A stretch of 64,000 nucleotides of DNA, from positions 128,001 through 192,000 of the forward strand of contig CAVPNL010000003.1 of NCBI GenBank assembly GCA_963706575.1, written 5' to 3'. Position numbers and translations under genes: made by a program. Origin of the DNA: an uncultured delta proteobacterium. GTDB taxonomy: Bacteria > Desulfobacterota > Desulfobacteria > Desulfobacterales > JAHEIW01. The notes beneath the pieces were generated by a model. The model had not been told where the DNA came from and made no database searches. It saw only the letters and a program-made list of their open reading frames with translations. Shown here piece by piece: positions 37,498 through 56,726 of this stretch; position 1 is the stretch's first letter; each line of letters opens with the position of its first letter.

Positions 37498-38872
37498 ATG
37501 CTAACCCAACGAGAAATCCTGTCCACCATTGAAATGCTTAAAAATGAGCACCTTGACGTGCGCACCGTAACGCTGGGCGTCAATTTACTGGATTGTGCCA
37601 GCCATGATCTGGCAAAACTTAAAAAAAAGATCCACACCCGAATCTCCCATTATGCCGGCAATCTGGTTAGTGCCTGTAATCATATCGGTGAAAAATACGG
37701 CATCCCGGTGGTCAATAAACGAATAGCGGTCAGCCCTATTGCCGCAGTGGGTGCGGCCATGTCATCTTCACAACTGGTGGATGTCGCTCGGGTTTTGGAC
37801 GAGGCTGCCGCAGGGGTTGATGTCGATTTTATCGGCGGCTTTACAGCGCTGGTCGAAAAAGGAACCGCCCGTGGTGATAGGGCCCTGATAGAGGCGATTC
37901 CGCGAGCCCTGGCTGAGACGGATCGAGTGTGTGCTTCGGTGAATGTCGCCTCGACCAAGGCCGGCATCAATATGGATGCGGTTTTATTAATGGGCAAAGC
38001 CATCAAACAGGCTGCCCGGCTTACCGCCAAAAGCGATGGAATTGCCTGTGCAAAGCTTTGTGTGTTTGCCAACATTCCACAGGATATCCCCTTTATGGCC
38101 GGTGCCTATTTAGGCATCGGCGAAGCCGACGCGGTGATCAATGTGGGGGTCAGCGGACCGGGGGTCGTAAAGAATGCCGTGGATCGAGCCCTTGAAGCCC
38201 AGCCCGGGACTAGATCTGGGGCAAATATCAGATTTGATCAAAAAGACCGCCTATAAAGTCACCCGGGTTGGTGAGCTCATTGGCCGGGAGGTTGCCGACC
38301 ACCTCAATATTCGATTTGGCGTTGTCGACCTATCGCTGGCGCCGACGCCCAATGTGGGCGATAGTGTCGGGGAAATATTCCAGAGTCTGGGACTTTTGAG
38401 CATCGGTGTGCCCGGCACCACCGCCGCCCTGGCACTGATCAATGATGCCGTCAAAAAAGGCGGCGCATTTGCCAGTTCCAGGGTGGGGGGCTTGAGCGGT
38501 GCGTTTATTCCCGTCAGTGAAGACCTGAATATTTCCGAAGCGGCCCGAAAGGGTCACATCTGCCTAGAAAAGCTGGAGGCCATCACGGCCGTATGCTCGG
38601 TGGGATTGGATATGATTGCCCTGCCGGGCGATACCACCGATGAAACCATTGCCGCCATTATTGCCGACGAAATGTCGATCGGTGTCATCAACAATAAAAC
38701 AACCGCCACCCGCTTAATCCCGGTGCCCGGCAAAAAGGCCGGTGACAGCGCCTATTTTGGAGGGCTGCTGGGCCAGTCTACGATTCTCCCGGTAAACAAC
38801 GGCTCTAACCCGAATCCATTTATTCGACGCGGTGGTCTCATCCCCGCTCCGATACGAAGTCTGACAAACTGA
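37498..38872 (+). pseudogene. DUF711 / UPF0210 (PFL-like) protein split by a +1 frameshift at 38206-38208
   Basis: LDVRTVTLG, NKRIAVSP, VGVSGPGVV in the first frame; [37 protein letters not shown] in the second. CCCGGGACTA has one extra G. Confidence 0.85.
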
Positions 38873-42090: not shown

Positions 42091-43494
42091 ATGGGAGGAT
42101 TGTTTGGCTGTGTATCTAAAAATGACTGCCTGGATGATCTTTTTTACGGCACCGATTATCATTCTCACCTGGGGACCAAACGCGGGGGGCTGGCGGTGCA
42201 AAATTCAAATGATTTTTCCCGGTCGATCCACAACATCGAAAACGATTATTTTAGATCCAAGTTCGAAGCCGATCTTCCAAAACTGCACGGGCACAAAGGT
42301 ATTGGCATCATCAGCGATCATGACCCGCAGCCACTGATTATCGGTTCCCACCTGGGGACTTTCGCCATCGTGACGGTCAGCAAAATCAACAATATCGAAG
42401 AACTAGCAGCCAAAGCATTCAAAAACAAGCACCATTTTTCAGAAATGAGCGGCGGCGAAACGAGTCCGACCGAACTGGTGGCCATGTTGATCTGTGAAAA
42501 AGAATCCTTCGAAGCGGGCATCCAGTATGCCCAGGAGAGCGTCAAAGGCTCCTGTTCAATGCTCCTGCTCACGGAAAATGGGATTTATGCGGCGCGGGAT
42601 AAACTGGGCCGGACACCGGTTGTTATCGGCAAAAAGGACGGGGCATATGCCGCCGCGTCGGAATCTTGCGCCTTTCCCAATTTAGGTTATGAAATTGAAA
42701 AATACCTGGGCCCCGGCGAAATTGTTTTAATATCGGCCGACAGTTGCGAACAAAGAAAACCGCCGCAAGAACAAATGCAGGTATGCGCATTTTTGTGGGT
42801 CTATTATGGGTATCCGGCGACCAGTTACGAGGGCATCAACGTGGAAGCCACCCGAAACCAATGCGGCAAGGCACTGGCACAAAACGACAGTGTCGATATC
42901 GACTTTGTCGCCGGTATTCCGGATTCCGGTATCGGGCACGCCATCGGATATGCAAACGAGAAGAATATCCCCTATATCAGGCCCTTTGTTAAATACACAC
43001 CGACCTGGCCCCGAAGTTTTATGCCCCAGATCCAGAGTACAAGGGACCTTGTGGCGAAAATGAAACTCATTCCGGTAAAGGAGTTGATCGAGGGCAAAAG
43101 AATCCTTTTTTGCGAGGACTCAATCGTACGCGGCACGCAGTTGCAGGACACCATTCAAATTTTATACGAATACGGGGCCAGGGAGGTCCACATGCGACCC
43201 GCCTGCCCGACCCTCATTTATCCCTGCGATTTTTTAAATTTTTCGACTTCACGGTCTACGCTCGATCTGGCCGGCCGCAAAGCCATCTCGCAACTTGAGG
43301 ATTCAGATGATAAGCATTTAGCCGAATATGCAACGGCAGGATCGCAAAAAAACCATGCGATGGTGAATAATATCAAACAACGATTGAAGCTGACTTCATT
43401 ACAGTACCAGAAACTGGAAGATCTGGTTGCTGCAATCGGTTTGCCGAAGGAAAAGCTATGCACCCATTGCTGGGATGGCAGCAGTTACTTCTAG
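42091..43494 (+). CDS. purF: Amidophosphoribosyltransferase-like protein lacking the N-terminal catalytic Cys
   Basis: ARDKLGRTP, GIPDSG, EDSIVRGT PRPP loop, EVHMRPACP, LCTHCW; starts MGGLFG after SD AAGGAG. Confidence 0.88.
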   Translation: MGGLFGCVSKNDCLDDLFYGTDYHSHLGTKRGGLAVQNSNDFSRSIHNIENDYFRSKFEADLPKLHGHKGIGIISDHDPQPLIIGSHLGTFAIVTVSKINNIEELAAKAFKNKHHFSEMSGGETSPTELVAMLICEKESFEAGIQYAQESVKGSCSMLLLTENGIYAARDKLGRTPVVIGKKDGAYAAASESCAFPNLGYEIEKYLGPGEIVLISADSCEQRKPPQEQMQVCAFLWVYYGYPATSYEGINVEATRNQCGKALAQNDSVDIDFVAGIPDSGIGHAIGYANEKNIPYIRPFVKYTPTWPRSFMPQIQSTRDLVAKMKLIPVKELIEGKRILFCEDSIVRGTQLQDTIQILYEYGAREVHMRPACPTLIYPCDFLNFSTSRSTLDLAGRKAISQLEDSDDKHLAEYATAGSQKNHAMVNNIKQRLKLTSLQYQKLEDLVAAIGLPKEKLCTHCWDGSSYF

Positions 43495-44159
43495 TGAAGA
43501 TGCTTTAAGATAACAAGCGATCGCTGCGAATCAATTGAAGGCAGTCTGTATTTTTCGATTTCGAGAGAATATTGATCCCCGAGCGCATTTGCGCGTACCG
43601 CATCCAATTCTTTCGTATCGATCTCCCCTTTCATCGCAATGATCGTCCCGTGCTCTGCCAGCAGCGGCAGCGCACTTTTCACAAACGTCAACAGATCCGA
43701 CAGCGCCCGACTGATAATGATATCAAAGGAAGTCGCATACTCAGGATCTTTCAAGAGGGTTTCAGTGCGCATTTGCCGGGCTTCGATATTCTCAAGACCG
43801 AGGGCCCTGAGCACATGTTTTAAGAAATTGATTTTTTTGCGAACGCCGTCGATCAGGAGGGCGGAGATGGACGGTTTAAAAATCTTGAGGGGTATACCGG
43901 GAAAACCGCCGCCGGAGCCGATATCGAGCAATCTGCCCCTGTCGGGAATGCATCCGGCAGGCGCCAAAGAGTCCAAAAAATGTTTGATAGCGATTTCCCG
44001 GGGATCCGTAACGGCGGTCAGATTAATTTTACGATTCCAGTTGAGCAACTCCGAGGCATAGATGGAAAATGAGGCACTGACACGTTCATCTAATTCGATA
44101 CCCAGTTTTCGAGCACCGTCAATGATGAATCGTTGCCATTCCCTGGAACCAATTTCCAT
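43491..44159 (-). CDS. rsmG: 16S rRNA (guanine-527-N7)-methyltransferase
   Basis: WNRKINLTA, HFLDSL, LDIGSGGGFPGIPL, SRA, MKG. Confidence 0.95.
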   Translation of the reverse strand: MEIGSREWQRFIIDGARKLGIELDERVSASFSIYASELLNWNRKINLTAVTDPREIAIKHFLDSLAPAGCIPDRGRLLDIGSGGGFPGIPLKIFKPSISALLIDGVRKKINFLKHVLRALGLENIEARQMRTETLLKDPEYATSFDIIISRALSDLLTFVKSALPLLAEHGTIIAMKGEIDTKELDAVRANALGDQYSLEIEKYRLPSIDSQRSLVILKHLH

Positions 44160-44176
44160 TTCATTCTACATTCCTT

Positions 44177-44255
44177 GTTCGATATTCGATATTCAACTGG
44201 CCATTAAAGCTGAAACCCAGATTTTGAACTCCTGACACCTGAAACCTGACACCTG
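44177..44255. repeat. Heptamer repeat arms (single orientation)
   Basis: TTCGATA TTCGATA TTC; CTGACAC CTGAAAC CTGACAC CTG, the same unit as at 22007 and 37364. Confidence 0.6.
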
Positions 44256-44264
44256 TATTCCAAA

Positions 44265-46631
44265 TCAATTGATACAGACCCGCCGCACCTCGGCAATATC
44301 GGTGAGGCCCTTAAAGACTTTCATGATACCATCCTGTCTCAGCGTGGACATACCTTCTTTCATCGCCTGGGCAAAAAGCAATTCCGTATTGGCCTGTTTT
44401 TTGATCATCAATTTGATTTTGGCAGTTCCCTCCATGAGTTCATGAATGCCCATCCGGCCGCGGTAACCGGTATTGGAGCAGGAGTCGCACCCGACAGCCC
44501 GGTGCAGGGTCAGGTCCGGATTATATTCGATGCCGGTTTGCGCCCAGTATTTTTCACCAAAATCCACATAAATCATTTCAAACTCATCTTTGGTCAAGGG
44601 ATATTCTTCCATGCAGTCTTTGCATAAGCGCCGCGTCAGCCGCTGGGCCAGCACACCAAGAAAGGCATCGGAAAAATTAAGTGGATTCAAGCCCATATCC
44701 AGCAGCCGGGTGATGGTTTCCGGCGCACTGTTGGTATGCAGGGTGGAAAATACCAGATGACCGGTCAAAGAAGCCTCAATACCGATAGAGGCGGTTTCCT
44801 CATCCCGCATTTCACCGATCATGATGACATCCGGGTCCGCCCGCAGAAAGGCCCGCATCACTCGCGCAAAATCCAGTCCGATTTTGGGTTTCACCTCCAC
44901 CTGACGCAGCCCGCCCTGGGTGATTTCAATCGGGTCCTCAGCCGTCCAAATCTTAATGCCCGGTTTATTGATGTAACCGAGAATGGCATGCAGGGAAGTT
45001 GTTTTACCCGAACCGGTGGGGCCCACCGCTAAAACGAGGCCGTAAGGTTTGGCGACGATCTTCTTCATTACTTTGGTGTTGCGGTCGGTCATCCCCATAT
45101 CGCCAAGTTCCATCGCACCGGCCGAAGCCAGAATTCGCATGACGACATCTTCGAAGCCACCTTGCGTCGGCAGAGTCGCCACCCGCAGTTCAAAGGTTGG
45201 AACGCCTTTACGTCTGAACTTGATCTTCCCGTCCTGGGGCAGCCGCCGCTCGGCGATATCCAGGTTAGACATGATTTTTACTCTGGAGATAATACCGCGA
45301 ACCATAGAATTGGGAACCTTCATGTATTCCTGGCAGACACCGTCGAGGCGAAAGCGAATCAGGGTCGATTTGGTAATCGGCGACGGCTCGATATGAATAT
45401 CCGACGAATTTTTACGGTAAGCGGCAATGATAACCTGATCAACCAGCTTGACGATTTTACCGGAGGCCTCATCGTAGCCTTCATCTTCTATTTCTTCTTC
45501 TTCCTCCTCTTCAAAGGCGACCTCCGGCATTAAGTCAAAATTTTCCAGGGTTTGCTCAGCTGTATTATCTTCACCCGTCGGCACCCCGCCATCAAAAAAC
45601 TGAGAGATGAATTTCTCAATATCTTCACGGATCGCAACAGTAAAATTAATCCGGCTGGTTTTCATTAAGGCCTTGATATTATCTGTTTTATTCAGATCCC
45701 GCGGATCATCGACCAAAACTTCAACGCCGTCCTTATCCCAGCTCATCGGAACCCAGTATTCGTTGCGCAAAAATGCTTTTTTCAGATTTGAGAGTAACTC
45801 GACCGGGGCTGGAAAGGAGGGATCATAGTCATGAAAGCTGGTGTCATAAAAAAGCGAAAAGGATTTGCCGATGGCTGCCTTGCTGATTTTATTATGTTCA
45901 ATCAGAACAAATTCCACGCTTTTGTTCATCTTTTTGGCAAGCGCAAATGCCTGCTGCAACTCGTCTGTGGTTACCATTTTTTCTCTTAACAGGTAGTCAT
46001 ATTTCGACCCGGTGGTGAATGTGGCCGCAACTGAATCCATTCGCTTTTTGATTTCGGCCTCAGCGGGGTTCAACTGGTGAGCTCTTTTATAGTTTTCAAG
46101 CGCGACTTCACGATGGTCGCGTTTCTCCATTTCCTTGCCGAAAATAAAAAAGATGTTGGCAGCTTCTTTTTCCTTCAGCTTCTGACGGTTAATCAAAACC
46201 TTGAATTCTTCAGACGCCTTGGAAGGGGAGTGCAGTTTTAGCATGCTTTCGCTGATTTCAGGGACGACTTTTTCGACCGGATAATCTTCTTTAAACAATT
46301 TGGCATATTCTGGAATGGCTTCCCCATGCAGCCCCATCTCCTTAAATGCCGAAGCACTATCAAGAATGGCGGGAACATCTCCCTGGTTGGACAGGCGTTC
46401 ACGCAGCATGGAAATATCTTTTGCCGAGAATCCTTTGGGCGTGGTTTCCTCTTCACTGTTAATTTCTTGTTTTAGCAGCCGAATGCGCTTCTCAATCTTT
46501 TCGTGGGTCGGGGCATCCTGAGGAGATACGTTGCCAAGAATTTTTTCGTAAATTTTCAGCGAATCTTCAAATAAGCCCATTGAACGACAAACTTCGGCTT
46601 CATTAATTTTGGATTCGATATCAGTATTCAT
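44265..46631 (-). CDS. PilB/GspE-family assembly ATPase with N-terminal TPR-like region
   Basis: SDIHIEP, DIAERRLPQDG, GPTGSGKTT, TAEDPIE, LRADPDVIMIGEMRD, TGHLVFSTLHTN, CKDC/CDSC; ~200 aa TPR-like N-terminal extension. Confidence 0.92.
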   Translation of the reverse strand: MNTDIESKINEAEVCRSMGLFEDSLKIYEKILGNVSPQDAPTHEKIEKRIRLLKQEINSEEETTPKGFSAKDISMLRERLSNQGDVPAILDSASAFKEMGLHGEAIPEYAKLFKEDYPVEKVVPEISESMLKLHSPSKASEEFKVLINRQKLKEKEAANIFFIFGKEMEKRDHREVALENYKRAHQLNPAEAEIKKRMDSVAATFTTGSKYDYLLREKMVTTDELQQAFALAKKMNKSVEFVLIEHNKISKAAIGKSFSLFYDTSFHDYDPSFPAPVELLSNLKKAFLRNEYWVPMSWDKDGVEVLVDDPRDLNKTDNIKALMKTSRINFTVAIREDIEKFISQFFDGGVPTGEDNTAEQTLENFDLMPEVAFEEEEEEEIEDEGYDEASGKIVKLVDQVIIAAYRKNSSDIHIEPSPITKSTLIRFRLDGVCQEYMKVPNSMVRGIISRVKIMSNLDIAERRLPQDGKIKFRRKGVPTFELRVATLPTQGGFEDVVMRILASAGAMELGDMGMTDRNTKVMKKIVAKPYGLVLAVGPTGSGKTTSLHAILGYINKPGIKIWTAEDPIEITQGGLRQVEVKPKIGLDFARVMRAFLRADPDVIMIGEMRDEETASIGIEASLTGHLVFSTLHTNSAPETITRLLDMGLNPLNFSDAFLGVLAQRLTRRLCKDCMEEYPLTKDEFEMIYVDFGEKYWAQTGIEYNPDLTLHRAVGCDSCSNTGYRGRMGIHELMEGTAKIKLMIKKQANTELLFAQAMKEGMSTLRQDGIMKVFKGLTDIAEVRRVCIN

Positions 46632-46692
46632 TTACTTTAGTGTACCTTTCATCTGAAATGTCGTAATTGCGGTGCCTATTTAAAAATTGTCA

Positions 46693-47070
46693 TCATGTTC
46701 GTATTCGGCCGCCCTTTTTTTTAAAAAGCTTTCCAAATTTTTTCCCGGATTTAGATGGCTGCAGCGATGGCAAAATTATGTCGCAGTTTAAACGGATCAT
46801 TGCAATCGGCACAAACAGTGCCATTAAAATAACGATATATCCAATCTCGGTTTTGCGGATATAGATCCGACCTTTTTCAAAAACCAGATCGGTTTCCCGC
46901 ATACCCTCCAGGGAGTCAATAAAAAAACTCCAATCCCGGCCTTCAGGCTCCACATTCACAGAAGATCTGAATTCTTTGAAAATAAGATCCCCTTTAAACG
47001 AGAACAGCATAATCCCGCTTACGCCGTCGGTACACAATATATCATTAAATAGCTCTCGTATACGTTCCAT
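46693..47070 (-). CDS. Roadblock/LC7-like protein (second, divergent copy)
   Basis: DGVSGIMLFSFKGDLI...LVFEKGRIYIR...AMIRLNCD pattern parallels MglB. Confidence 0.6.
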   Translation of the reverse strand: MERIRELFNDILCTDGVSGIMLFSFKGDLIFKEFRSSVNVEPEGRDWSFFIDSLEGMRETDLVFEKGRIYIRKTEIGYIVILMALFVPIAMIRLNCDIILPSLQPSKSGKKFGKLFKKKGGRIRT

Positions 47071-47099
47071 GCAATTTAGACGATCATTTTGGGTGATAT

Positions 47100-48110
47100 T
47101 TATTCACTGATAACTCGCAGAATTTTATCCCGGGGACACTTGGAATCAACTGTAATTACAGTGGTCTTTCTGCCAGGTATGAGAATGTAATCGTTGCTGT
47201 CGCCTTTATCGATGTATCCGAGCGTAAAATCACCCAGATGGAAGAAATCGCCCGCCTTCGATAGCTGGGCGACCCGGCTGTCCCAGAATTCATCCTGGTA
47301 TAAATCTTCCAGACCGCATTGCGGGCCAATTTCCTGTTCGATTCTCAGTTTGAGCCGCTTCAGCTGATCAGCTGGCTCCTCCCCGCCGGAATCGATTTGC
47401 TCCATGACGCTTTCAGGTACTTCTTCCGGCTCTTCCTCGTCTTTGCGCCGCATGGCTTCCAGAATAAGCGGCTGCAGATCACTTTGAATTTTGTTTTCTT
47501 TTAGGGCACAGCCATTTTGTATGGAAAGATTCACCGCATCCCAGGAAAATATTTCATGGGCCGCTGATTCACCCTGCATGTTGTTTGCCCTGGCGTCCAG
47601 CAATTCACCATCAGAAAAAAACAGAATGCCCTTTTCCCCTCCCGATTTTTTCTCCAGCCGAATCGTGCAGGTTTTCTGCTCCATTTCGATTAACTGCAAA
47701 AACATTCCGGATGAAACATTGTGGAGCGTGCCGCCTTCTGATTCCTTTCTCAAGGTTGTCAAAATCTGGCGGGCAAGATTCTCGATTAAAAAAGGTTTGG
47801 CAATATATCCAACCGCCCCTCCTTTGCGCGCAAGCTGCTCCATTTCAGGTGTACTATAACCCGTAATAATAATGACCGGTATGTCCGGATAATGTTCAAT
47901 GATATGAGCCAGCAGCTCAAATCCGTCCATATTGGGCATCTTTAAATCTGTAACCACCAACGAAATAATATTTTGCTTGAGGCGCGTTAGGGCCTGCAGA
48001 CCGTCTTCTGCCAGTAAAACCGCAAACGACTCCTGATATTTCTTAAAGCCTTCTTTGAGGGCATGTAGCATTTCAGTATCGTCATCGACCAACAGAACAT
48101 TTTTTATCAT
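47100..48110 (-). CDS. Response regulator: REC + DUF4388 (PatA-N-like) + C-terminal domain
   Basis: LLVDDD, TDLKMPNMDG, YIAKPF; GGTLHNVSSGMFLQLIEMEQKTCTI..GILFFSDGELLDA. Confidence 0.88.
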   Translation of the reverse strand: MIKNVLLVDDDTEMLHALKEGFKKYQESFAVLLAEDGLQALTRLKQNIISLVVTDLKMPNMDGFELLAHIIEHYPDIPVIIITGYSTPEMEQLARKGGAVGYIAKPFLIENLARQILTTLRKESEGGTLHNVSSGMFLQLIEMEQKTCTIRLEKKSGGEKGILFFSDGELLDARANNMQGESAAHEIFSWDAVNLSIQNGCALKENKIQSDLQPLILEAMRRKDEEEPEEVPESVMEQIDSGGEEPADQLKRLKLRIEQEIGPQCGLEDLYQDEFWDSRVAQLSKAGDFFHLGDFTLGYIDKGDSNDYILIPGRKTTVITVDSKCPRDKILRVISE

Positions 48111-49168
48111 CGGTCTTCCTCACTTTCATGTGACCAGGAGGCTTTTTCGATATCGACGATTTTAATTCCGGCTACATAATCCATTGATTCGTATTTTCTG
48201 ATCCTACCTAATTTATCGGTAATATCATTCATTTTCTTGATCTGATTATGGACTTTGACGATTTTCGGGTAAAACCGGTTATCCTTCTGTAATCCAGATA
48301 AAATTTCATCGATCAGGTTATTGATGATCGTCAGCGGCTGATTCAGTTTATGCGCGACACCGCCCGCCATCTCCAGGACACCCTGAAATTTTTCATTGCC
48401 GGCCTGTTCCTTTTGGCGGGTAATAAGGCGAGAGACGTCTCTGGCAATGCACTTAATGTGATTCGCCCGCCCGTTGTTTTTTATCAAAAATGCCTGGCAT
48501 TTAAGATGGTGCATTTTTGAATTTACGTCCAAAATCGATAGAATGGCTTCATTGCGACCGATTTTGAAAATTTCTGCAAGAAAAATAAGAAACAGGTCAC
48601 GATCGCCGGGAGCCAGAAACTCGGATAGCGGTTTACCCAGCAGCCTTTCTTTAGGTGCGCCGAACAGGCTCTCGGCAGCCGAATTAATATTAATCAGATC
48701 TCCGCGAAGATCGAAAATAATGATGATCGGGCTTAAGTTTTTAACCTGCCCTTCTATCTCGGGCATCTGGGTGTCCGTATCAATGTCGGATGTAATCTCC
48801 TTCAGAACGCCATCCAGATTAATGGCAATACCGTCATCATCCAGGATTGCTTTGGCCGTTATCGCACACCATATCGGTGTACCATCTTTTTTCTTGAGAG
48901 CAACGGGAAGCTCGTTAATACGACCGGTTTTCATAACGGTATGAATTAGATTTCCACGATCTTTCTTATTCAGATAAAATTCTATGACCGGATAGTCGAT
49001 CAGGTCCCAAGCGGAATCAAACCCAAATAAGTCGGCAAAGGCATAATTGCAATAAACGATTTTGCCTTCAATGGTCGTACGGAAGATCGGCGCCGGAAGA
49101 CTATCAAAGAATTCCGCATATCTTCGGGCCGAATAATCTCCGGCATCTATTAAGTTTTCAGCGGCCAT
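48107..49168 (-). CDS. Two PAS domains + HisKA-like helix pair, no kinase catalytic domain
   Basis: EGKIVYCNYAF and GDLININSAAE PAS starts; EMAGGVAHKLNQPLTII H-box; the protein ends ~75 aa later without N/G1/G2 boxes. Confidence 0.82.
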   Translation of the reverse strand: MAAENLIDAGDYSARRYAEFFDSLPAPIFRTTIEGKIVYCNYAFADLFGFDSAWDLIDYPVIEFYLNKKDRGNLIHTVMKTGRINELPVALKKKDGTPIWCAITAKAILDDDGIAINLDGVLKEITSDIDTDTQMPEIEGQVKNLSPIIIIFDLRGDLININSAAESLFGAPKERLLGKPLSEFLAPGDRDLFLIFLAEIFKIGRNEAILSILDVNSKMHHLKCQAFLIKNNGRANHIKCIARDVSRLITRQKEQAGNEKFQGVLEMAGGVAHKLNQPLTIINNLIDEILSGLQKDNRFYPKIVKVHNQIKKMNDITDKLGRIRKYESMDYVAGIKIVDIEKASWSHESEEDR

Positions 49169-49181
49169 TGATCCAAACCGT

Positions 49182-49310
49182 GATTTTAGAATTTAGAATT
49201 TGGATTTTGGATTCTAACCAATGGAGTTAACCCTCAGCATTTTCGTCGATCTCGAAATCCAAAATCTAAAATCCGCAATCAAAAATCGATAAACTCCATT
49301 ACTCCAATAT
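49182..49310. repeat. Periodic inverted-arm repeat (7-nt unit) inside the Mgl cluster
   Basis: GATTTTA GAATTTA GAATTTG GATTTTG GATT ... AATCCAA AATCTAA AATCCGC AATCAAA AATC, then ACTCCATT ACTCCAAT. Confidence 0.75.
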
Positions 49311-49312
49311 TA

Positions 49313-50296
49313 TCAAAATGTTACATCATACACTGCCAATTCATCAGCGTATTCTTCCGACCACGAATCCAAGTTTTCAATCAGGGCGGACTGCAGTCCC
49401 AATTCCCGGGCCATCTCATTTACCACCGCAACGACCCCGTCAACCAGAGCCCGATCACTGACACGGCCTGAAAGCGTAATTTTTTGTTCGGCGTATTCAA
49501 ATTCACCTGCAAACGGATCCAGAAAGGAAAAGCGGTCTGCATTTTCAACAAATTTTTGCTTTAATAGCTTCTGAAAGTCCGCCTTTTTTTTCCTCTTATT
49601 GTGTACCACCTTCTCGAATATGCTTAGCAATGCTTCCATCATCACAATTGCTGCTTGCGGTTTATTCTGCTTTAGCGCAGCCGGTTGACGGTCGGTTTGG
49701 GTATTCTTAAATGGAATTCGGCAAACGTTAAAAATTCCGCCCCGTTCCTTTGTTTTCTGGATAAGCAGGTTTTGATTCTTTTTTGATGGGCTCGGAGTTC
49801 CGTTTCCCCAGGAATAAGAGCCGCCCATGTTTTTTCCGTTTATCAGGAAAATCAGACCGTTTTCCTCGCCACCACCGATGGTAACGTCAATATAACCGGT
49901 CATTTTCTCAGCGCTCATCTTTTTAATCAGACCCTCAAGATCCGTAAATTCGGTACTGAGATTTTTATAGATTTTTTCTGCTGTCGGAATACTGGCCCAG
50001 AAGTAAACTTCTTCAGGGCCAATTTGGTAAATATTGACACTGAAATTATATTCGTCTCCGGCTGCCAGAAGGCGCTCGACCGCGTCATTGCCTGAAATTG
50101 AAATTTCTTTATCCTGGAAAAAACCACTCACCAGTTGGTCTTGATCGAAAAAAATGACACCCTCGGCTGCATGGGACTTAAAATAGATGCCGCCCGAGCC
50201 AATTTCACCCTGAAAATGTTCAAGCAATTTCCTGACGTCTAAATAATAGATATTTAAGTTTTCAAGCACAGGCTGCCGTTTGGGAATAACAACCAT
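49313..50296 (-). CDS. Protein with two tandem DUF4388/DUF2226-like domains
   Basis: Internal repeat: VLENLNIYYLDVRKLL..SGGIYF..EGVIFFDQDQ / IYKNLSTEFTDLEGLI..TGYIDV..NGLIFLINGK. Confidence 0.7.
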   Translation of the reverse strand: MVVIPKRQPVLENLNIYYLDVRKLLEHFQGEIGSGGIYFKSHAAEGVIFFDQDQLVSGFFQDKEISISGNDAVERLLAAGDEYNFSVNIYQIGPEEVYFWASIPTAEKIYKNLSTEFTDLEGLIKKMSAEKMTGYIDVTIGGGEENGLIFLINGKNMGGSYSWGNGTPSPSKKNQNLLIQKTKERGGIFNVCRIPFKNTQTDRQPAALKQNKPQAAIVMMEALLSIFEKVVHNKRKKKADFQKLLKQKFVENADRFSFLDPFAGEFEYAEQKITLSGRVSDRALVDGVVAVVNEMARELGLQSALIENLDSWSEEYADELAVYDVTF

Positions 50297-50396
50297 TTTT
50301 GCCTCTTAATCTGTCTCATTTGCCTACGGGTCGAATGGATGCGACCCGATTTTTATCCACTAAGGAATGAAAAATTATGGCCAATATGCCGCTTTA

Positions 50397-51566
50397 TTAA
50401 CGACTTGACGATCTTCGTCGTCGTAAGCGTTCAATTGACAGGCGGATACTATCCTGCATCCTTGAAATCGCCTCGGCCAGTTCTCCTATTTCATCCCTGG
50501 ATTTGGTTTCAATTTCGATCCCAAGGTCTCCGATACTGATCCGTTCGGCAACATCGGTTAGCGATTTAATTTTTCCGGTGAGGCGATGGCCGTAAATTAA
50601 AACAATAATACCGATTAAAAAAATCGTTCCGCCGAGAATGGCCCAGGTAATCAGCCGTGTTTTTTCAGTGAGAAGACCGGCCCGGGTTTCCATCAGTCTT
50701 ACCGGACCGGTGAATTCATCCAGATAAGTCGTGGCTGCAACCACAAACGGTGTCCCCGCAACCGGTGTGCAGACCATAAATTTTTCGCGGAATTTTCCAT
50801 CCTTATCCTGCCAGGTGTAATAGCCTTGAGATCGTTTTCCACCTTTTACACCGGTGTATATTTTCCAAAAGCCCGGAAAATTCTTTCCCAAAGGTTTTTT
50901 CAGCGTCGACATATCAATAGCGATGATTTTGGGATTCACATGGGCCCATGTGCGCCAGATATTGTCCGGGTCAGGCATCTCATATAATGCCGTATAGCCC
51001 GTTAAGCCGACTTTCTGGACCGCCAGGGTCTTAAACCCCATATCATTCATAAAGTCTTTTTTATTGAGTTCAGGGTGACCCAACAGATACAGCCGGCACT
51101 GAATGGCGACAGCTGTTGAAAGATCCGCGATTTTGTCTTCCGCCATCTGATTAACAATTTTCGTACTTTCATCGGTCAGTAAGACAGCCATTTTGTCGAA
51201 TTGCCATAAATACAACAAGCTGGCACCGATCATGAGGAGCAACGGAAGGCAAAAGAACAGCAAAAGCATTTTGGCGCGCAAATTCATGAACCCGGACTTG
51301 CGAGCCGGCTTCACCGGAATGTGTTCGCCGGCGGAGCGGTCCAGCTTAATTTCGGGACCGGCCGGTGGCGTCCCGGTATCAGCCGACTCATTGGCGGTCT
51401 CGGTAACGGATAAATCGACCGCGGAAGCCGCTGCAGGTGCATCTTGCGGTTTTGAAACCATGATCATGTGTGTACATACACGGCATTTAAACCTTGCGGC
51501 AGCGCCTTTTATTTTCGAAGAATCGATCCGGTATTTTTTTCCGCATTCCTCACAGATGACAATCAT
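50397..51566 (-). CDS. MJ0042-type zinc finger + TM + Cache-like sensor + TM + HAMP, no output domain
   Basis: MIVICEECGKKYRID...FKCRVC; KVGLTGY, AHVNPKII, GYYTW (Cache); LTDVAERISIGDL..RDEIGELAEAISRM (HAMP). Confidence 0.85.
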   Translation of the reverse strand: MIVICEECGKKYRIDSSKIKGAAARFKCRVCTHMIMVSKPQDAPAAASAVDLSVTETANESADTGTPPAGPEIKLDRSAGEHIPVKPARKSGFMNLRAKMLLLFFCLPLLLMIGASLLYLWQFDKMAVLLTDESTKIVNQMAEDKIADLSTAVAIQCRLYLLGHPELNKKDFMNDMGFKTLAVQKVGLTGYTALYEMPDPDNIWRTWAHVNPKIIAIDMSTLKKPLGKNFPGFWKIYTGVKGGKRSQGYYTWQDKDGKFREKFMVCTPVAGTPFVVAATTYLDEFTGPVRLMETRAGLLTEKTRLITWAILGGTIFLIGIIVLIYGHRLTGKIKSLTDVAERISIGDLGIEIETKSRDEIGELAEAISRMQDSIRLSIERLRRRRSSSR

Positions 51567-51595
51567 GGCTGAGCTCCTCTATCATAAATTCTGAA

Positions 51596-52075
51596 TTAAG
51601 CCGGTAGGTAATTTTTTTCACGTATCTTGGTGGCCATCACTTTAAGAAAGACATTCTTTTTTTCTTCACGACGTATCTCCTGGGCCAATCTTTCGATCAA
51701 TTCGGTTACGCGATGGCCGGGAAATCGAGAGAGTTCATAACCCAGATTTTCAACTTCATCTTCTATCAGAACTTGGGCAATAGGGCCAACGGCAAGCGAA
51801 AGATGGACCACCAGATATTCGAAAAAATCTTTGTCCAGCATAATGATCTTTTGGTCCTCTTTTTCAACCAGCCCATTTTGCATGAGTCTGGCAATGATTT
51901 CACGCATTGAGCTCATATTCAATCCGGTTTTTCGGGCCACGGTACCCAGCGGAGCCTTACCGTCCAACTCCATAAAAACGGAAAGCATTTGATGGTCAAG
52001 CGGAAATTCTCCAATGTCTTGCCGGACGACACGCTTAAAAACCATAGCGGATAATTCGCTCGACGAAAAATCCAT
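51596..52075 (-). CDS. Hypothetical protein: winged-helix-like N-domain + helical C-domain
   Basis: ELDGKAPLGTVARKTGL..IIARLMQNGLVE; LSLAVGPIAQVLIED. Confidence 0.75.
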   Translation of the reverse strand: MDFSSSELSAMVFKRVVRQDIGEFPLDHQMLSVFMELDGKAPLGTVARKTGLNMSSMREIIARLMQNGLVEKEDQKIIMLDKDFFEYLVVHLSLAVGPIAQVLIEDEVENLGYELSRFPGHRVTELIERLAQEIRREEKKNVFLKVMATKIREKNYLPA

Positions 52076-52246
52076 GTTTTTACCTCATCGGTGACATTTT
52101 CACTTTAAAAGCCTGCAAAACGCTATACCGATTTTGTTCTACCGATATTGAGCGATTGTCAAGGTTTGAAACGCTCATTTTAGGTTTTAATAAGTTTGTG
52201 TTCCCAACCATTCCGGACAAAGAGGGTTTATAACCTAGAGGGATTT

Positions 52247-53083
52247 TTACTTTGATTTTTGGAGTATTCGCAATTCCTGTTTTAAGGTATTTAACTCGGA
52301 ATGAATAAATTCTTTCAGTTCTGCAACCGCTTCGGCCAGATTGGCAAGAGATTGAGGTGCGCCTGAATCCGTCGCCAGACTTTTTTTAGCAGATTTCTCA
52401 GAGACTTTGCGGCCAGACCGCGCGGCTTCTTTCTGCAGGGGTGCTTTGATCAGAGATTCAATTTCTTTGGGAGCAGATATAACTTCTTTGGGAATTACTT
52501 TTGCTGCCTTTTTCTTCGAGACCTGATTCCGGAGTTGTTTATATTTGTCCATTTCAACGCGAAGTAATTTTTTCTTTTTCGATTCAGCCATATTCGCTGA
52601 TAGGACCACCTCTTCCAGACGGGCGAAAACGGAGTTCAGGATTTTAAAGGTTTTTGGGTGGGCATTCCCACGATTGGTTTTGATATAAACGCCGAGAGAA
52701 CCCAAAAGCTGAAGAAACGTTAAAATGATTTTTTGGTTTTTATAGGTTGCTTTCAGACTGTCTACTTGGGAAAGAAAACCGGCCAATGCTTCTTCGGTGA
52801 TTTCCCAGTCGATTGAAAGAACCAGATTCTTCAACTCTGCCAGGGGATAATCATCTGACACGCCTTCACCATCCGTCTCCTCTGCAGTAACGTCTGTTAA
52901 ATCAAAAATATCTTCTTCTTCCGGCACCGCTTGTTTTTCTCGCGCTTTATTTTCTTCTGCGACCGTATCTTTTGCTTCGATAGGATTTTCATCGCCGGCA
53001 GACGTATCCCCTTCTCCAAAGAGGTCATCAAGACGTTTCGCAATCTCGGAGTCCAGATTATTGTCATTGGATTTATCGACCAA
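52247..53083 (-). CDS. Hypothetical protein: acidic disordered N-terminus, helical core, C-terminal coiled coil
   Basis: TTG start after SD AGGAGGGG, 11 bp from the mglA stop; LAELKNLVLSIDWEIT core. Confidence 0.8.
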   Translation of the reverse strand: MVDKSNDNNLDSEIAKRLDDLFGEGDTSAGDENPIEAKDTVAEENKAREKQAVPEEEDIFDLTDVTAEETDGEGVSDDYPLAELKNLVLSIDWEITEEALAGFLSQVDSLKATYKNQKIILTFLQLLGSLGVYIKTNRGNAHPKTFKILNSVFARLEEVVLSANMAESKKKKLLRVEMDKYKQLRNQVSKKKAAKVIPKEVISAPKEIESLIKAPLQKEAARSGRKVSEKSAKKSLATDSGAPQSLANLAEAVAELKEFIHSELNTLKQELRILQKSK

Positions 53084-53094
53084 TTTATCCCCTC

Positions 53095-53700
53095 CTATTT
53101 CAAGTCCCTTTTTATAGACGCTACCGTCATCGAAATTATCTTTTTCAAAGTTATGACGACATTGGTTCCTTTTAGCGCACTGGCTTTAAATGACGGTCGT
53201 TTTAACTGGCCGTTGAGATCTTTTTCAAGAAGATCGGTCGGAAGCAGCGGAATTCCTTGTTCGACAAGGTCGGCTTTATTATACTGGATGACACAGGGAA
53301 TCCTGAAAATACTCTTTTTATAATTGGCAAGGTTTTCCTGTAGATTCTTTAAAGACAAAATATTTTTTTCACGGCGGACTGCCATGGAATCGGCAACAAA
53401 AACAATGCCATCCACCCCTCTTAGGACCAATCTGCGGGTCGCATTGTATTTCACCTGGCCGGGTACGGTGTAGAGTTGAATTTTAACATCATATCCATTG
53501 ATCACACCGATATCAAACGGCAAAAAGTCAAAAAAAAGCGTACGATCACCGTGCGTTTTAACAGTGACCATCTCGGTGTTGATACGCTTCCGGAATTTTT
53601 TGTATATGTATTCCAGGTTCGTCGTTTTGCCGCCGCGACCGGGACCGTAATAGACAATTTTGACCTGGATTTCTTTATTTTTCAGATTTACAAATGCCAT
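53095..53700 (-). CDS. mglA: MglA small Ras-like GTPase
   Basis: KIVYYGPGRGGKTTNL (G1), DRTLFFDF (G2, catalytic Arg), LYTVPGQ (G3), QYNKAD (G4), ASA (G5). Confidence 0.95.
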   Translation of the reverse strand: MAFVNLKNKEIQVKIVYYGPGRGGKTTNLEYIYKKFRKRINTEMVTVKTHGDRTLFFDFLPFDIGVINGYDVKIQLYTVPGQVKYNATRRLVLRGVDGIVFVADSMAVRREKNILSLKNLQENLANYKKSIFRIPCVIQYNKADLVEQGIPLLPTDLLEKDLNGQLKRPSFKASALKGTNVVITLKKIISMTVASIKRDLK

Positions 53701-53763
53701 GCGATATCTTAAAATTCAAAAAAACAAACAACCATCAACGCGCCAAGTAAATGACTGACGGTT

Positions 53764-54168
53764 TTAGAGTGAAAGGAGCGGTTCCAATATGGTTTTCAGC
53801 TGCTCGACCGAATCGGCAACTTTCAGTCTTAGAAACCCCAGCGAAATATCATTGCCGAAAATGGTAATCAGCAAAAACTCGGTCGTAATTTTGTTAAAAT
53901 GGATATTTTCTTTTTTGCCTTTATGAAACAGCAACGAAAACTCATTTTCCCCGATGATTTTGGCCATTGCGCTGACAGCGCCGAAATTGCCGGCCGCCAG
54001 GGCCGCCAGCGAATAAATATCATGCTGTTTTTCCCCATTATCCAGGTTGGCGATGATGTTGCCGGCCATATCAATCAGAAAAACACAGCGGACCCCATTT
54101 TCTATAAGATCCTGCTGTAAAATATCCTCTATTCTGTCGAGTTGTTTTTGACCAAGTGTGTAAGACAA
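53764..54168 (-). CDS. mglB: MglB roadblock/LC7 GTPase-activating protein
   Basis: FLIDMAGNII, SLAALAAGNFGA, IIGENEF, SLGFLRLK; directly upstream of mglA; SD AGGAGG + TTG. Confidence 0.92.
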   Translation of the reverse strand: MSYTLGQKQLDRIEDILQQDLIENGVRCVFLIDMAGNIIANLDNGEKQHDIYSLAALAAGNFGAVSAMAKIIGENEFSLLFHKGKKENIHFNKITTEFLLITIFGNDISLGFLRLKVADSVEQLKTILEPLLSL

Positions 54169-54638: not shown

Positions 54639-56534
54639 TCAAAGCTTTCGAAGGGCGGGAACATGAACTTCTTTTGAATTTGACAAATTCATTTCAATCA
54701 AAACTTCGTTACCGGATTGGGTGGTAATTTTCAAATCCGGGTAGCGTTTTCTGAAAACCTGGATCATTGCACTGTTCTCCCGCAATACCGATGCTTGAAA
54801 GTGCGTATAATTATTTTTTTTGGCGATTTGCTCAAGCACCTCAAGCAGATATGAGGCAATTCCCATACTCTGGTAATCTTCACGAACCACAAAAGCAATT
54901 TCAGCCACCTGCTCGCGGTCATAAGCATAGGTCCCAATGGCAATTATCTCTTTATGGCCTCCTTTTTGAACCAGGCCAATGATGGACATATTCTTACGGT
55001 AATCCACGCTGGACCACTGTTTTTGGACGACCTCATGCGAGAAGGAGCGCATGCGATAAAAAAACCGCATATAAATTGTTTTTTCCTGAAGTGAATAAAA
55101 GAAATTTCGGTAGGCAATTTCATCCGAAGGCAAAAGCGGTCGAAACTCCGCTGTTTTTCCATTTTTCAACTTAAACGTACTCTTATACCCTTCCAGAAAA
55201 AGCAGGTCTTCGGTGGAAGGTGGCAGTTGGTCAGCAAATATATAGTGGCGCATTTTGGCCACATTGATGAGCTGCTCGCGGAATTTTGGATGGGCGATCT
55301 GCGCCAGCTCCATGACCCGCTGATAAATGCTTTTGCCCTGAAGTTCTGCGATGCCGTATTCGGTAATGACAAAGTTGACATCCCCTCGGGTGGTGGCAAC
55401 TCCGGCGCCTTCACTTAAATGCGATACAATGCGTGAAACTGCACCGTTTTGCGCTGTCGACGGCAAGGCCACAATCGAAAACCCGCCTTTGGACATGGAG
55501 CTGCCTCTTAAAAAGTCAACCTGGTCTCCGATACCGCTGTAAAACAGATAACCCATGGAATCCGAACAGATTTGGCCGGTTAAATCCACTTCAAGGGCTG
55601 AACTGATAGAGACCAGGTGGTCGTTGCGGGCGATGACGGTGGGATCATTAACATACTCGGAAGAACGGAAATAAAAAGTGGGGTTGTTATCGACATAATC
55701 ATACAATTTTTTGGAACCCATACACAGGGACGCAACCACCCTGCCCGGCAGCAGTGTTTTTTTCTTGTTGGTAATCACCTTCTTCTCAAATAATGGCAAC
55801 AGGCCATCGGTAATGAGCTGGGTGTGAAGACCCAGGTCCTTTTTGGTGTCCAAATACTGCATGATGGCATAAGGCAAGTGACCGAACCCTATTTGAAGGG
55901 TGTCCCCGTCATCCACCAGCTGGGAGACAAAATGCCCGATCCGCAATGCAATATCGTTATCCTTTTCGGCAGGAACCATCTCCACCAGGGGCTCTTCGTA
56001 GGGCACCAGCCAGTCGATTTCGTCGACGTGTACGAAGCTGTCGCCCCAGGTACGGGGCATCAGCGGATTGACCTGGGCAATCACCAGGCGGGAGTTTTCC
56101 AGCCCCGACCGGGTGATATCGACCGATACGCCCAGACTACAATAGCCGAATTTATCGGGCGGGCTGACCTGAACCAGGGCCACATCCAGGCCGATGCGCT
56201 GGCTGGCAAAAAGTCGGGGAATCTGGGACAGATAGGCCGGAATATAATCAATTTTTCCTTCAAATGCGGCCTTGCGCATACTGGCGCTGATAAAAAACAG
56301 TTTAAGAGAAAATCTGCGCCGAAAGGATTCATCGTCAATATACCGCGAAAAAGTCGACGACAGCATTTGATAAACCAGAACATCCTGAATGCTTGAATTA
56401 TTAATCATCGCCTTAATCAGATGCTGGGGTTCACCGCATCCGGTACCGATAAAGACACGACTGCCGTTTTTAATTTGCAAAACCGCCTCCTCGGCGCTGA
56501 CAACTTTATTCGGGCACAATCGCATCAAATCCAT
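54639..56534 (-). CDS. Acetyl-CoA hydrolase/transferase fused to a C-terminal GNAT domain
   Basis: GTGCGEP, VSPPDKFGYCSLG, TLQIGFG, LEVDLTGQ, GIGDQVDF, TEYGIAEL; AFVVREDYQSMGIA (GNAT motif A). Confidence 0.9.
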   Translation of the reverse strand: MDLMRLCPNKVVSAEEAVLQIKNGSRVFIGTGCGEPQHLIKAMINNSSIQDVLVYQMLSSTFSRYIDDESFRRRFSLKLFFISASMRKAAFEGKIDYIPAYLSQIPRLFASQRIGLDVALVQVSPPDKFGYCSLGVSVDITRSGLENSRLVIAQVNPLMPRTWGDSFVHVDEIDWLVPYEEPLVEMVPAEKDNDIALRIGHFVSQLVDDGDTLQIGFGHLPYAIMQYLDTKKDLGLHTQLITDGLLPLFEKKVITNKKKTLLPGRVVASLCMGSKKLYDYVDNNPTFYFRSSEYVNDPTVIARNDHLVSISSALEVDLTGQICSDSMGYLFYSGIGDQVDFLRGSSMSKGGFSIVALPSTAQNGAVSRIVSHLSEGAGVATTRGDVNFVITEYGIAELQGKSIYQRVMELAQIAHPKFREQLINVAKMRHYIFADQLPPSTEDLLFLEGYKSTFKLKNGKTAEFRPLLPSDEIAYRNFFYSLQEKTIYMRFFYRMRSFSHEVVQKQWSSVDYRKNMSIIGLVQKGGHKEIIAIGTYAYDREQVAEIAFVVREDYQSMGIASYLLEVLEQIAKKNNYTHFQASVLRENSAMIQVFRKRYPDLKITTQSGNEVLIEMNLSNSKEVHVPALRKL

Positions 56535-56726
56535 TACTTTATCCTCGCTGAACGCTGTGATCTTAGATTCTATCACGCCTTGTGTCTTTCGTGATCTTTT
56601 TGATTTAATTACAATAATACGAATTGGAGATAAATCAACAATCAATTGTTTTCTAACTAAAAAGGCCCTATACTATGCATCCAGGACTTCGATTACAAAA
56701 ACGGGAGGATAGAATCCCCTGACATC

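Follow-up and report, generated by a model that had tools for sequence, protein, structure and literature searches.

The closest described counterpart of the locus treated here is the polarity module of Myxococcus xanthus, which comprises, along with MglA and MglB, the proteins MglC, RomR/RomX, RomY, FrzS and SopA. In that organism MglA is reported to bind the TPRs of SgmX (PMC11580455); elsewhere, cyanobacterial PATAN domains bind PilB1 and PilC (bioRxiv 2021.06.11.447907), and Group-1 MglA/MglB pairs are recorded in several sulfate reducers, one of them with a PATAN neighbour, within Group-1 neighbourhoods that vary widely (PMC4316618). Here, I describe a ten-gene cluster, g1 to g10, running from position 54168 to position 44265 on the minus strand of a window of 64,000 nucleotides (contig CAVPNL010000003.1, positions 128,001 to 192,000, assembly GCA_963706575.1, from an uncultured delta proteobacterium). 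The cluster is real, conserved, of the MglA-to-pilus-motor (MglA-SgmX-PilB) kind, previously undescribed in the literature searched, and not a conservon. Its most persistent link is that between mglA (g2) and the TPR arm of the ATPase encoded by g10, which survives the loss of other genes, and it is somewhat probable, judging from sequence, that MglA-GTP binds this arm and so brings the ATPase to, or activates it at, a type IV pilus machine whose genes lie in another part of the genome.

With the M. xanthus module the cluster shares a Group-1 MglA bearing R53 and Q82, an MglB of the GTPase-activating protein (GAP) type, a second roadblock protein, a receiver protein, a TPR unit and a PilB-type output. 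Unlike that module, it unites these parts in one place, fuses the TPR unit to the ATPase, has an MglB without the C-terminal helix, and adds PATAN adaptors, an output-less receptor and an ATPase of a distinct GAF/TPR clade; g8 and g9 are set beside RomR/RomX/RomY/MglC by description, being analogues by domain content only. The sequence-only reading had not recognised the arrangement as a described system, and no published description of the ten genes surfaced in the literature searches, one of which was swamped by ecology papers: the available text of PMC4316618 and its supplementary file 3 do not describe the cluster, that of PMC11656802 mentions neither TPR, GAF nor PATAN, and that of PMC13408092 contains no 'Desulfo'.

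All ten open reading frames are present and intact, in the order and on the strand first read from the letters, with spacers of 63, 11, 171, 29, 100, 144, -4, 29 and 61 bp from g1 to g10, and no pilC, pilT, pilM-Q or gsp gene lies among them, as had also been said. Domains were called by Pfam and NCBIfam scans, hhalign profile comparison, PDB sequence search, Foldseek and the Atlas; the earlier calls of roadblock, GTPase, winged helix (wHTH), Zn-ribbon/Cache/HAMP, PAS-PAS-HisKA, REC-DUF4388 and MshEN-T2SSE agree with Pfam and NCBIfam. The closest titled relatives of the cluster are Desulfobacterales; in this order, g6 was found in 85 of 251 genomes and in 40 of 140 genera. In a synteny set of 80 loci from 76 genomes, taken around g6 matches, all ten genes lie side by side in 14 loci and 45 keep the core order, an arrangement far beyond chance, so that the conservation of gene order proposed as a check of the cluster is borne out. 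mglB (g1) and the adjoining mglA are each present in 70 of the 80 loci, g3, their most constant companion, and g8 in 71, g4, g5 and g9 in 69, g10 in 54 and g7 in 24; four loci are g6 paralogues without any cluster, and several end at contig edges. The pair g8-g9, which precedes g10 in most full clusters, is duplicated as such in six loci, and a PilZ gene often follows g10. In one family an adenylate/guanylate cyclase gene lies 3' of g10, often after the PilZ gene (L073, L076, L083, L097, L098). Divergent clusters (L117, L118, L180, L185) have long g3 homologues of 582-754 aa, two of them with a tandem g3 core, and those of L117 and L118 end with a short TPR-ATPase lacking MshEN.

The link between the switch and the TPR arm was followed beyond the g6 set. 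The gene g2 (53095..53700) encodes a small GTPase of the Ras/Arf type, 201 aa long, with MglA as its closest likeness in the PDB (E 6e-53); g10 (44265..46631) encodes 788 aa, consisting of the TPR arm (residues 1-205; 46017..46631), an MshEN-like domain, an acidic linker and a PilB/GspE-type ATPase. Among 24 TPR-ATPase loci outside the g6 set, picked by hand, mglA lies upstream on the same strand in 15, and in five of these, reduced clusters (L129, L143, L162, L176, L186), nothing separates the two genes; in the MglA tree, the backbone of which is weakly supported, the five occupy three positions. Some other reduced clusters consist of mglA, g3 and the ATPase gene without an intervening PATAN gene, and two of the 24 loci keep other cluster genes without mglA. 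The link also crosses the limits of the order: in 30 genomes of the same phylum, chosen by top TPR matches and compared by coordinates only, a TPR gene lies at most 10 kb from mglA on the same strand in 19 (11 families), the remainder being six without an MglA match, four with the genes on separate contigs and one with them on opposite strands.

A second, widespread and MglB-less type of mglA locus tells a similar story. There, the order is a gene for a stand-alone TPR-PilZ protein, then mglA, then a gene for a PATAN-cNMP-binding protein, usually followed by a PilZ gene, and the TPR gene directly precedes mglA in 13 of 14 such loci (L175, L177-L179, L181-L184, L099, L105, L106, L108 and L110; the copy in the source genome is L003:9850-12035). 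Serine replaces R53 in five of the 14 MglAs, and the PATAN-cNMP gene hints that this parallel MglA receives a cyclic-nucleotide signal. Over some 190 residues the TPR region of the stand-alone protein and the g10 arm are homologues (hhalign 96-97%; E 2e-10 and 1e-9), and the TPR sub-profiles are specific, matching only the two TPR-ATPases among 16,763 open reading frames of the source genome. The C-terminal barrel of this protein has a predicted PilZ fold (MrkH: Z 10.2, root-mean-square deviation 2.5, 87 residues), an assignment that comes from the fold search alone, the barrel giving no profile match to 14 local PilZ proteins (0.7%). The RxxxR motif for cyclic di-GMP (c-di-GMP) is absent from it in 13 of 13 cases, as it likewise is from PilB-binding PilZ proteins described in PMC11656802. 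The system resembles the PilZ-PilB-FimX assembly of Xanthomonas and Pseudomonas, in which a PilZ-fold barrel without the c-di-GMP motif is linked to a PilB-type system; the likeness extends to the TPR-PilZ protein and to ATPase-less variants of g10 (see below), yet here the barrel is fused to an MglA-associated TPR arm and its binding to an ATPase is putative.

As to the motor itself, Pfam recognises MshEN and T2SSE in g10, the TPR region being supported through homologues, and its Walker A and B motifs, its Asp and His boxes and its four Zn cysteines show no change across 46 of 46 homologues. The PilB/GspE label given to g10 at the outset is not specific enough: g10 falls below both curated cut-offs, and its place is in a GAF/TPR clade of its own. 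The tree was built, without named references, from 72 of 108 domains (36 cluster copies having been thinned out); in it the TPR-ATPases group together (0.986) as sister to the GAF-MshEN ATPases, away from both GspE and the PilBs above cut-off. Canonical PilB orthology was rejected. Binding of c-di-GMP by g10 was rejected as well, since the RLG motif, the mark of c-di-GMP-binding MshEN domains, occurs in none of 46 homologues and model NF053729 scores 18.1 against 38 bits. A query with the N-terminal part of g10 matches 232 of 251 genomes of the order; nine matches or neighbours of about 770 aa were placed by the tree in the GAF-MshEN sister clade, and the six that were scanned all have GAF. 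PilB above the TIGR02538 cut-off occurs in only 29 of the 251 genomes, namely in 11 of the 19 without an N-terminal match versus 18 of the 232 with one (counted by hand), and three genomes (G085, G175, G244) have PilM, no cut-off PilB and the cluster ATPase as their single match. Because PilM is present in 78 of 80 genomes and cut-off PilB is scarce, the best candidate for the usual extension motor of the order is the GAF/TPR clade, which there seems to stand in for PilB. Extra signalling domains are common among the PilB-type ATPases of the order (L147-L153, L164, L165), namely a C-terminal cNMP-binding domain, a C-terminal REC or an N-terminal GAF, and none of these ATPases was seen beside pilC or pilT.

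The source genome (5.67 Mb, 91.8% complete) holds three MglAs, a second TPR-ATPase that shares 53% identity with g10, and another g4-g5 pair. Its type II secretion system (T2SS) locus carries its own GspE and GspF, and a second pilus-like locus carries its own ATPase and platform protein; pilMNOPQ and pilT-pilU are encoded elsewhere, the pilMNOPQ locus being without an ATPase. A separate canonical pilB-pilT-pilC locus, proposed as a thing to look for, is absent from this assembly, which has no ATPase above the PilB cut-off either. At least two platform genes occur in 30 of 30 genomes tested, and relatives hold a higher-scoring one that the source genome lacks, so that a lone pilC may be missing from the assembly. 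Among neighbouring observations, the second TPR-ATPase gene has a REC-PAS gene after it and no mglA in its vicinity (contig C18, L001:7703-10978), and in several relatives, too, TPR-ATPase genes precede a REC gene of comparable size; a Zn_ribbon_4 protein, of the same domain type as the N-terminus of g5, is encoded right after pilT-pilU (L008:10160-10804), and a tandem pilQ pair follows pilMNOP (L009:6196-11847).

The switch is encoded by g1 to g3. Aligned to solved MglA, g2 keeps the intrinsic arginine finger R53 and the catalytic Q82, both found in 86 of 86 g3-linked MglA homologues, and on its sequence it is a Group-1 MglA by the criteria of PMC4316618 (R53/Q82 and a coupled mglB). The mglB product (g1, 53764..54168, 134 aa) is a roadblock protein (Robl_LC7 in Pfam), likely a GAP by predicted function, that matches MglB 6h5b_B over residues 22-134 of 160. 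MglBs of this clade end at the core, with a tail of at most 7 aa in 89 of 90 homologues and no C-terminal helix; an acidic C-terminal tail is found in 24 of 24 other Desulfobacterota MglBs, a set chosen with a full-length model. This helix, in M. xanthus, binds a pocket of MglA (K181, K185, L64, I67) and promotes exchange (PMC6785124). The next gene, g3 (52247..53083, 278 aa), encodes an N-terminal amphipathic helix, a five-helix core and a C-terminal coiled coil; the helix is acidic (residues 8-22), and a motif like the MglB tail precedes the g3 core in 76 of 88 homologues. The equivalent of K181 is kept in 86 of 86 g3-linked and 22 of 22 tail-linked MglAs, versus 4 of 14 at the MglB-less locus, and also in five of five g3-less cases of mglA adjacent to the ATPase gene. 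The g3 core (about residues 78-195) is modelled with confidence and its best natural fold matches are CheA P1 domains (Foldseek; Z 12.1, root-mean-square deviation 3.3, 114 residues), whereas g3 finds no match in Pfam, in PDB sequences or among named Atlas entries, and no His is found among the common residues of columns 104-111 in 51 homologues, the phospho-His site being placed by helix order. FimL is a parallel case of a His-less HPt scaffold. It acts as a polar hub (PMC12632253).

These features invite a wider reading, namely that a Desulfobacterota-wide TPR family reads MglA-GTP and plugs into the pilus motor, either as part of a non-canonical PilB or on a PilZ adaptor, with MglB split into a GAP core (g1) and an exchange-promoting helix borne by the pseudo-HPt g3, all under a kinase-free Cache-HAMP receptor; if true, it would place a receptor-to-G-protein-to-motor pathway in one operon and supply the missing direct MglA-PilB link. 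In this full form the reading is rather doubtful. The g3 helix resembles MglB tails weakly (for 4 of 24 tails the match exceeds 95% of shuffles; hhalign 31% over 10 columns), the equivalent of K185 is lost, the position being Ser here, the HPt likeness is one of fold only, with a Z of 12.1 that is within the range of generic helical bundles, and g3 gives no profile match to six HPt domains of the source genome (hhalign 0.6%).

The receptor g5 (50397..51566, 389 aa) reads Zn ribbon, transmembrane segment, Cache-like domain, transmembrane segment and HAMP (Zn_ribbon_4, a weak Cache and HAMP by profile; hydrophobic segments start near residues 95 and 309), keeps two CxxC pairs in 66 of 66 homologues, and ends 21-24 aa after the HAMP end motif in 64 of 66; with no C-terminal output domain, the Zn ribbon is therefore the likely output. 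A weak match to the NCBIfam model of GltJ (E 0.003) recalls the M. xanthus membrane protein of that name, which likewise belongs to an MglA/MglB setting and starts with a Zn ribbon of the MJ0042 type, but g5 has Cache and HAMP instead. The GltJ ribbon is reported to recruit MglB and is modelled on the MglB C-terminal helix (PMC11135422), a target absent from the MglB encoded here. The companion gene g4 (51596..52075, 159 aa), a wHTH with a conserved helical C-domain, often travels with g5; on contig C4 of the source genome (L004:9287-11553) the second pair forms a trio of a 138-aa protein, a g4 paralogue and a Zn-ribbon/dCache/HAMP receptor without output domain. Both genes are missing, as is g6, from many of the reduced clusters in which mglA and the ATPase gene persist.

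Four further regulators complete the set. Without a Pfam match of its own, g6 (49313..50296, 327 aa) is made of tandem PATAN (DUF4388-like) repeats and a C-domain, as its early description as a tandem DUF4388/2226-like protein had it: hhalign gives 88-89% against the PATAN of g8 and 97.5% between the repeats, and the Atlas match is PatA_N/DUF2226. The optional g7 (48107..49168, 353 aa) is PAS-PAS-DHp with a weak HisKA and a kept His273, ends 72-92 aa after the His and has no HATPase; an active kinase in the cluster was rejected, since g5 ends after HAMP and g7 lacks the ATP-binding domain. The phosphorylatable g8 (47100..48110, 336 aa), for which the cluster encodes no kinase, joins REC (D55, T83 and K105 intact; D55 kept in 73 of 81 homologues), PATAN (DUF4388) and a C-domain; the C-domains of g4, g6 and g8 gave no match above 30% among 19 sub-profiles. 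The PatA-type regulators of cyanobacteria (PixE and kin) likewise have PATAN and receiver in one protein beside a PilB-type motor, yet the order is reversed here (REC-PATAN), and the cluster has no chemosensory array but does include a small GTPase. The second roadblock call for g9 (46693..47070, 125 aa) holds as a divergent and weakly supported one, with Robl_LC7 in 8 of 49 homologues and roadblocks as the top four of five PDB matches at E ~0.5. Its C-terminal tail is basic and amphipathic, with the motif present in 47 of 81 and a median charge of +5, and is a possible membrane anchor. The membrane anchor of MinD is a similar basic amphipathic tail.

The favoured model, in which the switch acts on the motor through the TPR arm, can be laid out in order of falling support, the first step being the best supported and the input steps the least. 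The TPR arm would be the effector surface for MglA, a cis-acting counterpart of SgmX, which in Myxococcus works in trans; since it stays beside the switch gene when other genes are lost, the switch likely activates the motor directly. The GAF/TPR clade, in turn, would be a working pilus-extension motor of the order. Next, g8 and a membrane-anchored g9 would make up a positioning unit under the control of phosphorylation; g6 would add another PATAN adaptor to it, and the optional g7 would serve, under PAS control, as phosphodonor or phosphatase. A scaffold role for MglA and MglB would fall to g3, which may provide in trans the allosteric helix absent from g1. Finally, g5 would relay a periplasmic signal via HAMP to the Zn ribbon and thence to the switch, probably through g4. 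In this scheme the switch would be reset by MglB and g3 and positioned by g8/g9 and g6, with signals entering through g5/g4 and g7. The pathway from receptor to GTPase to motor proposed from the letters survives as a conserved unit linking an MglA switch with a PilB-type ATPase, its receptor-to-GTPase step being still conjectural. To call it self-contained goes too far: g7 is found in 24 of 80 loci, g4, g5 and g6 are often lost, g8 has no kinase, and the machine lies elsewhere.

Several observations weigh against this model. Genomes that are kin are not independent and the loci were selected from best matches; seven of the 24 hand-picked TPR-ATPase loci lack any cluster gene, being mostly second copies or contig ends; mglA, mglB and g3 occur without a TPR gene in the fetched stretch in 10 of 20 MglA-centred loci; and the second mglA locus of the source genome, the one exception among 14, has no stand-alone TPR gene. 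MglA is near-universal in the order (74 of 80 genomes) and is found in 34 of 40 genomes without TPR-ATPase, which renders genome-level co-occurrence uninformative, and the TPR profile matched generic TPRs alone in the PDB, leaving kinship to SgmX unsupported. The weak likeness of the g3 helix to MglB tails and the fold-only likeness of its core to HPt domains, both given above, count against the model as well. On the side of the motor, g10 scores 493 bits on the PilB model TIGR02538 (cut-off 675.65) and 470 against 630 on the other equivalog; the TPR-ATPase is never beside pilC, pilM-Q or pilT in the fetched loci; the source genome has three assembly-type ATPases besides the TPR-ATPases; and in four loci of one family (L100:6029-7501, L104, L119, L121) the ATPase domain is replaced, giving TPR-MshEN-PilZ-like barrel, where the barrel is the same as that of the stand-alone protein (hhalign 95.8%). 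In that family the receptor gene is relocated beside a phosphonate-type binding protein gene.

Part of this evidence would suit a different output: the MglA-TPR link may be real and the GAF/TPR ATPases serve the T2SS, the second pilus-like locus, the regulation of mixed hexamers, or no machine at all, rather than type IVa extension. The separateness of the clade from GspE and cut-off PilBs, the absence of adjoining machine genes, the barrel in place of the ATPase in four loci, the crowd of assembly ATPases in the source genome (two with TPR, three others) and two loci (L144, L145) in which a TPR-ATPase gene lies just before an ATPase gene of the second pilus-like type speak for it; such a role is nonetheless quite unlikely, for the T2SS and the second pilus-like locus own ATPases while pilMNOPQ has none, and the clade is absent mostly where a cut-off PilB is present (11/19 vs 18/232). 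It is unlikely, too, that MglA is only an upstream polarity mark, with the pilus motor contacted by the PATAN proteins g6 and g8 or by g3 and the TPR arm binding an adaptor. PATAN domains do bind PilB1 directly in Synechocystis (bioRxiv 2021.06.11.447907), PATAN genes occur in both mglA loci, g8-g9 sits before g10 in most full clusters, and direct contact of SgmX and PilB was not detected in Myxococcus in the work reported in PMC11580455; yet five clusters are reduced to mglA beside the ATPase gene, and others to mglA-g3-ATPase without an intervening PATAN, PATAN proteins encoded elsewhere in those genomes being possible. Very improbable is a conservon-like sensory module with transcription via g4 as its output and the ATPase as a co-regulated passenger. 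The likeness to actinobacterial conservons (CvnA-D) proposed in the sequence-only reading extends to the clustering of a membrane HAMP sensor, a roadblock, a winged-helix-like protein and a small GTPase, and g4-g5 does recur as a separate pair. Conservon membership was nevertheless rejected: R53 is kept, with Q82, which makes this a Group-1 and not a Group-2 MglA (Group 2 lacks the arginine finger), no CvnA-type histidine kinase with an ATPase domain is encoded, the cluster ends with a motor-type ATPase, and many clusters with mglA and the ATPase gene do without g4 and g5. In the matches listed, g4 gave no conservon family: CvnC (DUF742) is not among its 12 Pfam matches, nor among the 25 families, out of 61, that were listed for 47 homologues.

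A few observations concern the cluster as a transcription unit and its surroundings. RNA-library contigs of relatives (~90% identity) cover most bins of the cluster and some bridge g1-g3, although such contigs cannot show transcripts, and promoter and terminator scans gave counts at shuffle level (22 vs 18.5 and 13 vs 14.3). The g6/g7 spacer (49169-49312) holds heptamer-like short repeats and folds into a long hairpin of -30 kcal/mol; the spacer 3' of g10 (44160-44264) also has heptamer-like short repeats, and an 11-base motif from it has 67 copies genome-wide. Downstream, gidB (43491-44159) follows g10 on the same strand after 105 bp, and upstream an acetyl-CoA hydrolase-GNAT gene (54639-56645) precedes g1, each flank being kept in only 17 of 80 loci. 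Farther away, a DUF711 gene (37498-38872) is broken into two frames that overlap (covering Pfam positions 1-221 and 224-412), a frameshift or assembly error being the probable cause.

To sum up, the way in which MglA activates PilB is open in Myxococcus, where SgmX is needed (PMC11580455). With a TPR arm fused to the motor and a cluster that in some genomes shrinks to mglA and that one gene, the MglA-to-motor step would be reduced to two proteins, and the tail-less MglB would offer a natural means to separate GAP from exchange activity. In addition, the cluster provides a candidate for the ATPase that assembles type IV pili in a large order of sediment sulfate reducers, most of which are without canonical PilB.

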